DNA of 64,000 nucleotides from an uncultured Alphaproteobacteria bacterium (GCA_944393715.1 CALYBB010000038.1:15325-79324); one strand, 5' to 3'; shown: positions 40,154 through 47,388, counted from the stretch's first letter. Notes: generated by a model from the letters alone, not told the origin. Numbers and translations: made by a program.

Positions 40154-42382
40154 TTAGGAATCGGCATTTTGCTCATTTTCCTCTTCTTCAAACTCTTCAA
40201 ACTCTTCGTAATCTTCGTTAGGATCATAGTTGATGCCAAGCTGAGCGAGCATATCATCGTTGATATCTTCGCGCTGGGCAACAATCCAATCCGGAACGTT
40301 TGGTGCCGGCGGAATGGCAGCCAGAGCTTTCATCTTGGGATCAAGATACCAGCGTGGCGAGTCAGCCATAATCGGGCGATCAATGTAGCTTTGCATCAAA
40401 ACGACTTGTTTGAGCATTGGCAAGCTTAAAAGTTGAGTGGTGGAAATAACTGATACCCCCTGTAGTTGATAAGAAACGTTTTTGGCAAAGGGATTTGATC
40501 CTTTAGAGAAGGCTCCTTCATTTTTGGAATAAGAAGTTGTTTGGACGGTTTTGTTGCCAATCATTTTGGAAAAACGCTGAGCCGTTTGTTCGTTGTTTTG
40601 TGATAAAATAACCTTGCAAGCGGTGGTAGAGATAACGGTTTCAAGGTCGTCTTTGCCATATTTGCCGGAGATTTGGCCTAAGTCTTGGCCGATTAGCAGG
40701 TATGATACCTTTTGCCCACGTCCGACGGCTGGTCCGTCAATAACGGCTTTTAGTTTTGGCATGGTCGGGAATTCATCCATGACGAACAAGCAGGCAAAAG
40801 GCCCCATTTTGCCATCAGTCGGGTTATTAAAATTGGGTGGATTTGCAATTAGGTAGGAAGACATTAAGTCTATAAAAGTTCCGGAAATAACGCTCAAAGC
40901 GCGGGCATCAACCAGGTTGACTGAAAGGTATATTGAGATAGGCTTGAATTCGCCGGTGATTGGGTCTTTGAGACCGCGCAGATCTTTGAAATTGATGTCA
41001 GAAAAACTGGTACGGGCAACCACGGCGGAGTTTTTGAAAATGCTGATGCCGGCAAAGGCTGTTGACAATACCGAGCCACGTTCTTTGTCCGGCATGGAAC
41101 TTAACTGGCTTAACTCAACAATGCAGCGGGCGGAATAGCCAAATTTTCGTGCTTCGTCTATGGCGGCTTCCAACAGGTCGCGCATTGGGTCAGCCATGGC
41201 GGCCATTTGGTCTCCTTCGTCCATGCGGCGTTTTATTTCCTGCGATTGTTTAATTTGAGCCTCGGTAATCCACTCCAGAATCATGGCAATGCAGGCTTCG
41301 TGGCCAATCCATTTTTCCGGCAGCAACGCCCAAGTTCCGATAGGCAGGTAATTATCAATATTGATGGAATCGGAACGCAGGTTTTGTAAGGCGCGCATAG
41401 CCATAGGATCGTTCATTTCCAGATAGTAGCCCTCCAAGACTTTTTTGTCTTCGTCGTCCAGCTTGCCTTCATAAATACGGCCGATGAAATAGTCGTTGGC
41501 ACGAGCTTTTTCACACTTTGAAACAATAAAATGGATAAAGCCGGTTAAGGCTGCGCGGCCGGTTTTTGACCAGTGTGGATCGGCGCCGCCTTTGGGGTCT
41601 TCAACCAAAACATTGCACATTGAATCAACGTACATATCGCGTGCCGGTCCGGGGTCGGGAATGGCACCGGGCGAAAGCGGATTCCAGCTTGGGTAATAGA
41701 TGCCCTCGGCAGGGTTGTCTTCCATGCCCCAGTTGATAATGAAAACAGGGCCGACTTTGGCACGGGCGCCGGAGGTTGAAAAACATAGCTCCGGCTTAGG
41801 GTCATTGACCACAATGCTCATGTTTGGTGAATTAAAAATGGTTGGGACAACCACACCGGCTGTTTTACCGGTTCCTGGGGGAGCACAGCACAGAACCGAC
41901 AGGGTTTCGTTCATCCGCAAAAGTTTGCCTTTAAATTTTCCGACGACGATGCAAAAACCGTCTAAGAGCCCCATTTTTTTGATGTCGCTCATTTCTGCCA
42001 AACGCGCTGAGCCATGGATATTTGACTGGAAGCGGTAAGGATTGGTTATGATGCCGATGATCAAACCCAGAGGCAGGCTGATGAAAGGCAAAAGAGGAAT
42101 CCATAAGCTAGCTGAAAAAGGACCATTATAGTTGATAAGCTGCTTCATCCAAACCCAATAACGGTTGTATAAAAAACCACTGCGGCTAAAAACAAGTGAA
42201 AAGAACTTGGAAACCTCATCAAGGCTTTCTTTGGAAATGCCTTTGCCGACGAAATTTGCCAGAGGCAAAGACACCAAAGCTAAAAAGATGGTTAATAAAA
42301 CCGAAATAATTATGGTAATAACAATCCAGCGTACCGCACTGTTATATTCCTTCCATTCTTCGCCTTCTTTTTCCAAATTCAT
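40154..42382 (-). CDS. virD4: Type IV secretion coupling protein (VirD4/TraG family ATPase)
   Basis: N-terminal TM helices, Walker A APPGTGKTAGVV, Walker B FVMDEFP, and an acidic C-terminal tail EDYEEFEEFEEEENE. Confidence 0.85.
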   Translation of the reverse strand: MNLEKEGEEWKEYNSAVRWIVITIIISVLLTIFLALVSLPLANFVGKGISKESLDEVSKFFSLVFSRSGFLYNRYWVWMKQLINYNGPFSASLWIPLLPFISLPLGLIIGIITNPYRFQSNIHGSARLAEMSDIKKMGLLDGFCIVVGKFKGKLLRMNETLSVLCCAPPGTGKTAGVVVPTIFNSPNMSIVVNDPKPELCFSTSGARAKVGPVFIINWGMEDNPAEGIYYPSWNPLSPGAIPDPGPARDMYVDSMCNVLVEDPKGGADPHWSKTGRAALTGFIHFIVSKCEKARANDYFIGRIYEGKLDDEDKKVLEGYYLEMNDPMAMRALQNLRSDSINIDNYLPIGTWALLPEKWIGHEACIAMILEWITEAQIKQSQEIKRRMDEGDQMAAMADPMRDLLEAAIDEARKFGYSARCIVELSQLSSMPDKERGSVLSTAFAGISIFKNSAVVARTSFSDINFKDLRGLKDPITGEFKPISIYLSVNLVDARALSVISGTFIDLMSSYLIANPPNFNNPTDGKMGPFACLFVMDEFPTMPKLKAVIDGPAVGRGQKVSYLLIGQDLGQISGKYGKDDLETVISTTACKVILSQNNEQTAQRFSKMIGNKTVQTTSYSKNEGAFSKGSNPFAKNVSYQLQGVSVISTTQLLSLPMLKQVVLMQSYIDRPIMADSPRWYLDPKMKALAAIPPAPNVPDWIVAQREDINDDMLAQLGINYDPNEDYEEFEEFEEEENEQNADS

Positions 42383-42401
42383 TTTTTCCTCTTTAGATTT
42401 T

Positions 42402-43625
42402 TTAAGCTATACCACGCAAAAGTTTTTTGATTTTTTCCATAACCGCTTTGTCAGGTGTTCCTTCAGCATCCTCAAGAACTTTGGCAAACAGCGGAATTTC
42501 TTTCGGTGTGCCGCGGTCAATACGTGTTACTTTGACGCCGATGTCTTTCCAGATGTCAAACATATCTTCAGCATTGATAATATTTCCTATTTGCTCAATA
42601 ACAAAGGGGACTATATCAAAAGATAAGTCGGCGTCTTTGAGCTTTTCTTGCAAGGTTATGTGTGCAAGATCTACTTTGCGAACCGGTGATATACGGTGGG
42701 AGCTTTCAGAAAACCATAAAGGTTCTTCGTCGTTGAATCGCTCTTCATCGGCGAGCCAATCGCCGGGTTCTTTGTCATTAAGGCATAGGCAGATTTGGTT
42801 GGAAGAAACGCCTATAAAATCAATAAAGGTATTTTTTATGGTGGCACCGGTAATGATTTCGTAGCCTTTTTGTTTAAGAAGCTCAAAAGTAGAATTGACG
42901 CTGCCGGTTTTTTGTTTTGCTTGAGGATAGGGTGTTTTTTTGTGTGTCGGAGAAGCATTTTCGGGTTTTGTCGGTTTTTCTGTAGGTGTTTGGGATTTTG
43001 GAGCCGGTTTGGTTTCGGGTTCAGCAAAGAGATCAAAATCGAGCGTTTCGGTATCGCCAAGTTCAAACAGCGAATGGGTAAATTCTTTGGGTTCAGTTTT
43101 CGGTGCCGGTATTGCCGGTTTGGATGTGTGAGCGGGCGGAATACCAGAGAGAGCGGCGCGGTGATCGGCGTCAAAGGCTGATTTTTGCGGCACCGAGCTG
43201 TCATCCAGCGGGGATCGGATGCTTCTTGGACGAATTTCTTTATAAGATTTTTTCTTTTTGACTACTTTAACAGCCGCAGTATTGGCGATCTTCTTTACTT
43301 GGCTGCCAAAAAAGTAATTGAATATTTTGAGAGGAAAAAGGCTGAGGTTTTTAAATAGATATTCCCAATGTACGGTACTTAAAGCCGCCCACACAGTTAT
43401 CCATGCCGGCACAGCGGCCAAAATTATTAAGACAAAAGCCCATTCTTTGGCCTCGTCAATGACCCACCCTGATGACCATAAATCCCAAGCATGCTGCCAA
43501 TGAGAAGGACGGAAGATGTCAAAATGCCAGTTGGTCAGCATAATAACGCGAATACCCTCTATGAAAAATATGCTCCACAGAAGGCCGACCAAAGCTATTT
43601 TTAGTAAGATAAGCAAAGGTTTCAA
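42402..43625 (-). CDS. Hypothetical membrane protein, long paralog (TM domain, Pro/Lys/Thr-rich linker, C-terminal ~160-aa domain)
   Basis: N-terminal ~110 aa are homologous to the 43687-44157 product, sharing motifs WxFDxF..SHW and W.SGxVI. Confidence 0.5.
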   Translation of the reverse strand: MKPLLILLKIALVGLLWSIFFIEGIRVIMLTNWHFDIFRPSHWQHAWDLWSSGWVIDEAKEWAFVLIILAAVPAWITVWAALSTVHWEYLFKNLSLFPLKIFNYFFGSQVKKIANTAAVKVVKKKKSYKEIRPRSIRSPLDDSSVPQKSAFDADHRAALSGIPPAHTSKPAIPAPKTEPKEFTHSLFELGDTETLDFDLFAEPETKPAPKSQTPTEKPTKPENASPTHKKTPYPQAKQKTGSVNSTFELLKQKGYEIITGATIKNTFIDFIGVSSNQICLCLNDKEPGDWLADEERFNDEEPLWFSESSHRISPVRKVDLAHITLQEKLKDADLSFDIVPFVIEQIGNIINAEDMFDIWKDIGVKVTRIDRGTPKEIPLFAKVLEDAEGTPDKAVMEKIKKLLRGIA

Positions 43626-47099: not shown

Positions 47100-47112
47100 A
47101 GCGTTTTTCCTT

Positions 47113-47388
47113 TCAATTTATTTTTATGAACAACGGCCGAGCGGAGGAAGAGTCCACAACGGCCAGACGATCCGGTGTTTTTCCACCTTTGATTAAAATA
47201 TAAATATTGGCATCGGCAATGCGGTAATCGGCTATGTAGCTTCCGGCAGGTTGAGAAAGGCTTATGTCTGCGCGCACAGGCTTGTTGCTTATTCGCCCGT
47301 AGACAATACCGAGAGCCGCCAGCATGCCAAAAATCAGCAAAAAAGTCATGATGCAAACGGCTAGTTTGATTAATTTGAGTTTGTTCAT
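47113..47388 (-). CDS. Small hypothetical membrane-anchored protein; first gene of the virD4 operon
   Basis: 91 aa with a single N-terminal TM helix. 14-bp gap to the next gene. Confidence 0.3.
   Translation of the reverse strand: MNKLKLIKLAVCIMTFLLIFGMLAALGIVYGRISNKPVRADISLSQPAGSYIADYRIADANIYILIKGGKTPDRLAVVDSSSARPLFIKIN

Follow-up and report, generated by a model that had tools for sequence, protein, structure and literature searches.

A VirD4-type coupling protein and a nuclease-fold membrane protein form the core of a conserved chromosomal operon in uncultured gut Alphaproteobacteria

The subject of this work is a block of six genes, ending in a gene for a VirD4-family type IV coupling protein (T4CP), in DNA of an uncultured Alphaproteobacteria bacterium (GCA_944393715.1 CALYBB010000038.1:15325-79324). 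The whole stretch analysed, 64,000 nucleotides (nt) long, is referred to below as the window, and positions are counted from its first letter. The block occupies positions 47388-40154 of the minus strand and contains six co-directional open reading frames (ORFs), encoding proteins of 91, 292, 661, 156, 407 and 742 amino acids (aa). That they are tightly spaced or overlapping had been stated in a first-pass annotation of the window and was confirmed by ORF mapping. The five partners of VirD4 are designated here by their lengths, and the features are as follows:

47388-47113, minus strand: p91, 91 aa
47099-46221, minus strand: p292, 292 aa
46142-44157, minus strand: p661, 661 aa if the start codon is TTG
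44157-43687, minus strand: p156, 156 aa
43625-42402, minus strand: p407, 407 aa
42382-40154, minus strand: VirD4-family T4CP, 742 aa
40150-40129, minus strand: terminator-like hairpin with a T-run, from a consensus scan, immediately beyond the stop codon of VirD4; it overlaps yacG, which is convergent, at the 3' end of that gene

From p91 to VirD4, the gaps between consecutive genes are 13, about 78-96, -1, 61 and 19 nt, the negative value being an ATGA overlap in which the start codon of p156 lies on the stop codon of p661. On contigs carrying identical proteins, gene callers choose for p661 an ATG at 46124, which gives its probable length of 654-655 aa. Otherwise the callers find the same six genes, flanked by YacG and RluD; these flanks, named already in the first-pass annotation, were identified as members of the YacG (PF03884) and RluD (PseudoU_synth_2) families. 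The number of terminator-like sites in the region does not exceed shuffle expectation, and the same holds for the combined promoter and terminator scan. We conclude that the six genes are a real, intact operon of an uncultured gut alphaproteobacterial lineage.

The product of the last gene matches three Pfam families: T4SS-DNA_transf (4e-58; 197.8 bits vs a cut-off of 20.1), TraG-D_C (3e-22; 79.4 bits vs 22) and TrwB_AAD_bind (2e-16; 60.4 bits vs 20.5). All three gathering scores being exceeded, the protein is, as judged by family, a bona fide T4CP. Besides an N-terminal anchor of two predicted transmembrane (TM) helices, at residues 20-38 and 95-113, it has a nucleotide-binding domain and an all-alpha domain, the latter enlarged by an insertion of some 60 aa, and it ends in an acidic tail. 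In 81 orthologues, the Walker A (PPGTGKT) and Walker B (DEF) motifs show 100% conservation; the tail varies in sequence while its acidity is kept in all orthologues, with a median of 14 D+E per last 35 residues. The intact VirD4 with an acidic tail, as described in the first-pass annotation, was therefore borne out by the Pfam matches, the invariant Walker motifs and the retained acidity.

More than 1,700 homologues of this VirD4 were found at E <= 0.001, and among the 120 listed all are at least 79% identical to it. The clade is fixed close to the replication origin in abundant gut bacteria of humans and animals, and for one orthologue the contig collection has 7,040 indexed blocks. The protein falls far under every cut-off of the NCBIfam T4CP equivalogs (best 136 bits vs 250 for CD1115, and 128 vs 728 for VirD4 PRK13897), and neither phmmer nor profile search of PDB gave a significant match, the weak profile match being Cag5 of Helicobacter pylori (E 0.006). 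The nearest annotated T4CPs, from Erythrobacter, Sphingosinicella and Microvirga megaplasmids, are 33-36% identical to it; alignment with a plasmid T4CP from a virB operon extended over the full length, with 33% identity and E 2e-124. The T4CPs of Erythrobacter and Sphingosinicella, the surroundings of which were inspected, close canonical virB operons beside MobA/MobL relaxases. The VirD4 proteins of distant genomes that are linked to p407-like genes (described below) are 50-60% identical to that of the window, even though encoded on contigs of 28-51% G+C. Thus, the window VirD4 resembles the T4CPs of VirB-type (mating pair formation class T, MPF-T) systems in its full-length homology, two TM helices, Walker motifs and three Pfam families. 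It differs from them in the insertion of about 60 aa and in its position among housekeeping genes, whereas the plasmid proteins close virB2-virB11 operons by MobA/MobL. These comparisons place it in a distinct T4CP clade, separate from the plasmid T4CPs.

The gene directly preceding VirD4 encodes its ancient partner. The N-terminal part of p407 is a two-TM anchor followed by a lysine-rich juxtamembrane stretch; a linker of about 120 disordered residues, carrying the invariant acidic-aromatic motif HxLFxFDDxxDxDFD, leads to the C-terminal domain, which is cytoplasmic, comprises about 165 aa and has a PD-(D/E)xK (NERD-like) fold. A fold search with p407 returned nucleases, and the core is arranged as alpha-beta-beta-beta-alpha-beta. 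Profile search of PDB gave no match for p407. Sub-threshold matches to NERD (PF08378), with E values of 0.0016-0.05, were obtained for 14 of 35 orthologues, and none of them reaches the Pfam gathering score; the window p407 itself has no NERD match, and one distant homologue carries a precomputed one. Relaxase families are absent from the Pfam matches of the same 35 orthologues. Within the lineage, the protein has an acidic triad D269...D284-x-E286, in which D284 and E286 are invariant and D269 is conserved in at least 90% of sequences. Compared with NERD and other PD-(D/E)xK nucleases, p407 shares the core fold and the sub-threshold NERD matches, but what marks the family is an acidic-aromatic loop in place of the canonical D...(D/E)xK motif, and the lysine position is not conserved.

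A full HMMER search with the p407 profile gave 428 representative clusters, and the p407 domain is a conserved unannotated protein family. Ten distant members, representing nine distinct lineages, were looked up. Upstream of VirD4, p407-like proteins (E 1e-17 to 1e-82) were found in L088, L089, L091, L094/L095 and L096/L097, that is, in five of the nine lineages the VirD4 gene lies directly downstream of the p407-like gene, in one of them with an intervening 158-aa gene. All five VirD4-linked loci are embedded among housekeeping genes, and in L096 the two genes form a bare two-gene operon with DsbA/AccBC on one side and unrelated genes on the other. The evolutionary core of the block is a two-gene cassette of p407 and VirD4. 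The p407 domain had no match in PLSDB (tblastn against 72,556 plasmids), in INPHARED phages or in IMG/VR contigs, and a phage or plasmid origin of p407, considered as a candidate, was rejected. Among three further proteins (P0446, P0465 = L093 8001-12542, and P0508), the p407 C-terminal domain was seen inside 1,500-aa TPR-Roc-COR-TIR proteins and, in another protein, preceding an AAA ATPase domain. These contexts indicate a mobile domain, which occurs also in conflict-type or signalling architectures.

A one-genome-per-species scan gave 80 loci with VirD4 identities of 70-96%, nearly all from uncultured Alphaproteobacteria of gut or rumen. Relatives bear titles such as 'Azospirillum sp. CAG:260' and 'Proteobacteria bacterium CAG:495', and we take them to represent GTDB order RF32. 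The six-gene architecture, mapped by tblastn and ORF positions, is complete in at least 57 of the 80 species-level loci, and at most of the others the contig stops inside the block. Nearly all loci have the genes for RluD and for an RpoH-like sigma factor on the upstream side, and yacG and the RNase G gene lie downstream solely in the closer clade (VirD4 at least 82% identical). In a clade with VirD4 72-75% identical, p91 is missing and p292 directly follows rluD. A further clade (L054/L055/L077; VirD4 74% identical) has the last four genes only, its operon beginning at the p661-like gene; the upstream genes there are SecY- or CysS-like, and p292, p91 and rluD were not detected nearby. Median identities in the closer clade are 86% for VirD4, 89% for DksA, 83% for the RpoH-like sigma factor, 70% for Maf, 67% for YacG, 66% for RluD and 55% for RNase G. 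Within the block, conservation is highest for VirD4, on a par with DksA or the sigma factor, and p661, with a median identity of 36%, evolves fastest. In one locus (L026, 2477-8707) there are apparent extra module genes, namely a p156-like ORF at 5298-5702 and, some 3 kb upstream, further matches to p292, p661 and p91 that make up a second set, suggesting partial tandem duplication.

The block had originally been described as inserted between yacG and rluD and, as one possibility, as a remnant of an unusual conjugative system. The usual location of VirD4 genes on mobile elements, the clade-dependent downstream flank and the different upstream context in L054/L055/L077 would agree with a recent island or with the decaying remains of a conjugative element. 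The junction comparison in relatives, however, revealed an intact and syntenic block across the lineage. All its genes are intact and the ATPase motifs invariant, VirD4 is conserved like DksA and RpoH and above neighbouring housekeeping genes such as RluD, YacG and RNase G, the G+C content of the block is unremarkable, and no integrase, repeats or tRNA gene were found at its borders. The insertion idea fails on the synteny, the intactness, the core-like conservation of VirD4 and the unremarkable G+C content taken together. An island or remnant is effectively excluded; the block is vertically inherited, with no recent insertion.

The five upstream genes had been treated as equivalent partners of unrecognised nature, which proved not to be the case: p407 is the ancient nuclease-fold partner, p156 its truncated paralogue, p292 and p661 are lineage-specific and p91 probably belongs to the DUF6476 family. 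The paralogy of the two membrane proteins, suspected from the start, was verified by alignment and by reciprocal profile matches (p156 against the p407 hidden Markov model (HMM), 1e-8; p407 against the p156 HMM, 6e-17). p156 consists of a p407-type two-TM anchor and a short basic cytoplasmic tail, without the nuclease-fold domain. In L091 (5156-7497; 51% G+C), two tandem full-length p407 paralogues stand right before VirD4. This arrangement suggests an ancestral pair, of which p156 is the copy that has lost the nuclease-fold domain.

The p292 protein is cytoplasmic and all-helical; its N-terminal part bears the acidic motif DDFDxLLDDFI, its helical core is conserved and its C-terminal helix is basic. 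Its initial description as acidic needs to be narrowed, as overall it is mildly acidic (isoelectric point 5.6) and the acidity is concentrated in the N-terminal part. The AlphaFold2 model of p292 has a mean predicted local distance difference test (pLDDT) score of 83; Foldseek found no PDB match under E 0.5, profile search of PDB gave none, and no recurrent Pfam family was seen among its orthologues. Its homologues number 416 at E <= 0.001, and among the 120 listed all are unannotated and from the same lineage. p661, referred to earlier as a coiled-coil protein, is a charged, non-membrane protein, and its description is corrected here in that no TM segment is predicted. Across 77 orthologues its mean identity is 16%, with a conservation peak at residues 240-280; the conserved parts are the central motif GD[IF]I[DE]YLMK..[IV]LASAAWAGNK (about residues 235-275) and the C-terminal end. 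It matches no recurrent Pfam family and no PDB profile. At the p661 position of L072 (6325-8133), a protein with an N-terminal J-like domain is encoded, matching the J domain of Escherichia coli DnaJ at 6e-13 in phmmer, with YDPD in place of HPD.

The first gene of the block, located 13 nt upstream of p292 and co-oriented with it, encodes a protein with one predicted TM helix. Nineteen of 20 p91 orthologues match DUF6476 at E <= 0.01 (best 7e-8), the window copy reaching 17.8 bits vs a cut-off of 24, and p91 is probably a member of the alphaproteobacterial DUF6476 family. Since it is missing in one clade, p91 is probably a neighbour and not a component of the conserved core. The p292, p661 and p91 profiles found no match in the five distant loci searched (L088-L092); as far as these searches reach, p292 and p661 are specific to this lineage.

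Secretion genes were sought both around the block and among its products. A Pfam scan of the 46 further ORFs of the 64-kb window returned housekeeping families or no match, and none of the VirB, relaxase or integrase families, in agreement with what the first-pass annotation had stated. Related loci were inspected to a distance of 10 kb, more than 80 of them close and 10 distant, and their called genes include no family of a type IV secretion system (T4SS), of relaxases or of integrases. In Pfam and NCBIfam searches with the six proteins, the partners had no VirB, Dot/Icm or relaxosome match. The membrane partners, compared by hhalign with VirB2, VirB3 and VirB6 of the nearest T4SS, gave probabilities below 1% in all three comparisons, and the partner HMMs had no match in two plasmid virB loci. 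Likeness to DotM, DotN, IcmS, IcmW or LvgA was not found for p407, p292, p156 and p661 in PDB profiles, nor for p407 and p292 by fold. The earlier statement that no partner is recognisable as a T4SS component stood up to these profile, fold and hhalign comparisons. The idea of divergent VirB or Dot/Icm proteins is unsupported by Pfam scans of orthologue sets, PDB profiles and hhalign, and no divergent relaxosome proteins emerged from profile and fold searches either. The block is syntenic and ubiquitous in relatives, but it does not correspond to a characterised system.

The main rival explanation, which we consider rather unlikely, is that VirD4 is the substrate receptor of a chromosomal T4SS with channel genes elsewhere in the genome. 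Its partners would then constitute a coupling complex like that of DotL-DotM-DotN-IcmSW-LvgA, p407 and p156 making up the membrane platform, and p292 and p661 serving, as adaptors or chaperones, to recruit effector proteins or DNA. In the rvh system of Rickettsiales, T4SS genes are indeed scattered in the genome, and core effector-translocating systems also show very high T4CP conservation. All experimentally studied T4CPs act with a T4SS, and canonical virB operons are where the closest annotated relatives of the window VirD4 are encoded. T4CPs typically contact their adaptors through acidic-aromatic motifs and acidic tails, and the J-like domain in L072 suggests chaperoning of protein substrates. 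There is also a resemblance in layout to the Dot/Icm coupling complex (DotL, DotM, DotN, IcmS, IcmW, LvgA): the T4CP follows a membrane protein with a cytoplasmic domain and has a C-terminal extension, small membrane and acidic proteins are encoded upstream, acidic motifs are present, and the order of the six genes, from the small TM protein through the acidic, the variable and the two membrane proteins to the T4CP, loosely parallels that of the Dot/Icm operon, presumably icmT-S-R-Q-P-O. However, no T4SS gene was seen within 10 kb at any of the loci mentioned above, even at the bare two-gene operon, and no other dot/icm genes are nearby. No partner resembles DotM, DotN, IcmS, IcmW, LvgA, VirB2, VirB3 or VirB6 by profile or fold, and the cytoplasmic domain of the ancient partner p407 has a nuclease fold, not an adaptor fold.

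A different precedent is offered by mobilisation modules. MOBC1 modules pair a T4CP (MobB of CloDF13) with a BamHI-like PD-(D/E)xK relaxase (MobC; TraX of pAD1), and MOBC1 elements such as CloDF13 have no mating channel of their own, their relaxase bearing an acidic metal-binding motif (PMC6736028, PMC7431656). p407 likewise stands beside a T4CP and has a PD-(D/E)xK fold and, within the lineage, an acidic D...D-x-E triad, and by analogy the MOBC1 mobilisation module is the nearest functional precedent for the p407-VirD4 pair. The stored CloDF13 record (L098, NC_002119.1) is poorly annotated, contains fragmented, seemingly frameshifted mob ORFs and is typed 'non-mobilizable', which makes it unsuitable as a MobB/MobC reference. 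Taken literally, the precedent would make the block a domesticated MOBC-like module, in which p407 is a membrane-tethered relaxase and VirD4 its coupling protein, and chromosomal DNA exits through the channel of a resident conjugative element, resulting in chromosome sharing similar to that of high-frequency-of-recombination (Hfr) strains or in DNA release. A T4CP with a PD-(D/E)xK relaxase is precisely what defines the channel-less MOBC1 elements such as CloDF13 (PMC7431656, PMC6736028), and the triad conserved in the lineage resembles BamHI and MOBC acidic motifs. This scenario, including its outcome, appears improbable to us. Conservation of the triad is poor across the p407 family at large, no Pfam relaxase family matches, and tblastn of the p407 domain against the plasmid collection found nothing, so that similarity to plasmid proteins is not detectable. 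Unlike the MOBC1 proteins, p407 has a two-TM anchor and a long disordered tether, and p407-VirD4 is a fixed chromosomal core pair with core synteny and no oriT-like repeat found, not a mobilisable plasmid or another mobile element.

A tethered nuclease could also serve in defence. A membrane device might be envisaged in which a hexamer of the FtsK/HerA superfamily catches DNA incoming by conjugation, phage infection or transformation, and the tethered nuclease destroys it, as in HerA-nuclease pairs. The conflict-type architectures in which the p407 domain occurs, within TPR-Roc-COR-TIR proteins and near an AAA ATPase, would suit such a role, as would the very fast evolution of p661, reminiscent of arms-race proteins. 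On the other hand, none of the six proteins matched a PADLOC-DB defence model at E <= 0.01. The position of the block is fixed among housekeeping genes, while defence systems are usually patchy and located in variable islands, and VirD4 is under purifying selection as strong as that of core genes. We regard a defence function as highly improbable.

The remaining content of the window is that of a core chromosomal region. Genes of replication and segregation (GyrB, DnaX, RadA, ParA, ParB, DnaB) and of RNA metabolism and translation (GidA, GidB, MnmE, Rho, RNase G, RluD) were identified, as well as an RpoH-like sigma factor, HydF, MlaE and more housekeeping families; Maf, DksA and YacG were added by precomputed gene calls on matching contigs. 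A minus-strand cluster of radA, parB, parA, gidB, gidA, mnmE and rho lies in 15941-31742, and cumulative GC skew reaches its minimum at about 28-29 kb of the window. The parAB-gidAB-mnmE-rho cluster together with the skew minimum makes the region look origin-proximal, which puts the VirD4 operon some 12-18 kb away from the probable origin of replication. Between the sigma factor gene and a GGDEF gene, on the minus strand at 49466-52023, there is a conserved unannotated gene pair (693 aa and 159 aa), present in the closer clade with 47-85% identity; for the 693-aa protein the precomputed data contain only a faint Pkinase match. HydF, the [FeFe]-hydrogenase maturase, is encoded at 4627-5832 and fits an anaerobic gut lifestyle.

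The reading we prefer, tentatively and with somewhat less than even confidence, is that the block is a fixed chromosomal module for DNA processing and coupling at the inner membrane. It starts from features that are directly supported, namely gene structure, synteny, conservation, the linkage of p407 and VirD4 in distant genomes, the nuclease fold, the intact ATPase and the topology. In such a module, a VirD4 hexamer and the p407 and p156 anchors would form a single inner-membrane complex. The tethered nuclease-fold domain of p407 would bind or nick DNA and hand it to VirD4, whose ATPase would move it at the membrane. It would thus be a 'DNA-processing plus coupling' module, like the DNA transfer and replication (Dtr) part of conjugation systems, fixed as a core cellular function with no VirB channel of its own. 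p292 and p661 could be lineage-specific adaptors or regulators, acting perhaps through the acidic-aromatic motifs common to p292, the p407 tether and the VirD4 tail. In evolutionary terms, the ancient p407-VirD4 cassette has gained p156, p292 and p661 in this lineage, where it sits behind a probable DUF6476 gene. A bolder proposition, that a VirD4-type ATPase has been recruited, together with a tethered nuclease-fold protein, as a vertically inherited core machine of the cell which handles or translocates DNA at the inner membrane without any T4SS channel, we consider doubtful.

Several observations weigh against the preferred reading. To our knowledge, every characterised T4CP acts with a T4SS channel, and the independence of the module from a T4SS is putative, being read from the local absence of T4SS genes. 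In the wider p407 family (100-110 representatives), the putative metal-binding residues D269, D284 and E286 are conserved in 76%, 77% and 54% of proteins, respectively. The best-conserved motif of the family is the acidic-aromatic loop GDW[LI]ADEE..F..E.PLWFSE, which resembles a binding surface more than an active site. In four of the nine distant lineages (L090, L092, L099/L100, L101/L102) a p407-like gene occurs with no VirD4 in the stretch examined, hence the p407-VirD4 pairing is not obligatory. Inverted repeats of at least 12 nt, sought in the block as a sign of an oriT, were not found. Finally, the J-like domain at the p661 position in L072 suggests a function that would suit protein substrates, not DNA.

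In the literature searched we found no description of the present pairing of a T4CP with a nuclease-fold protein, of this lineage-specific T4CP operon, or of orphan T4CPs of relevance; a study of Hepatincolaceae does not include the lineage. What is new here is the setting of a bona fide T4CP, whose genetic and protein context is non-mobile and undescribed. Coupling proteins have so far been understood only as gatekeepers of type IV secretion and conjugation, and the present data reveal a distinct T4CP clade under housekeeping-level constraint, repeatedly paired with a nuclease-fold membrane protein and with no channel genes adjacent at the loci inspected. If the proposed recruitment were true, the module could be a device for DNA release, DNA uptake or chromosome processing, for example. 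VirD4 would in that case become the first T4CP with a demonstrated function independent of a T4SS, and the pair a new conserved system of two genes, present in several bacterial lineages. Should the genomes concerned possess a T4SS, the locus would represent a coupling complex of a new kind, its adaptors not having been recognised so far. Should they lack one, it would show that a T4CP can work alone, which would bear on the debate whether T4CPs pump DNA across the inner membrane.

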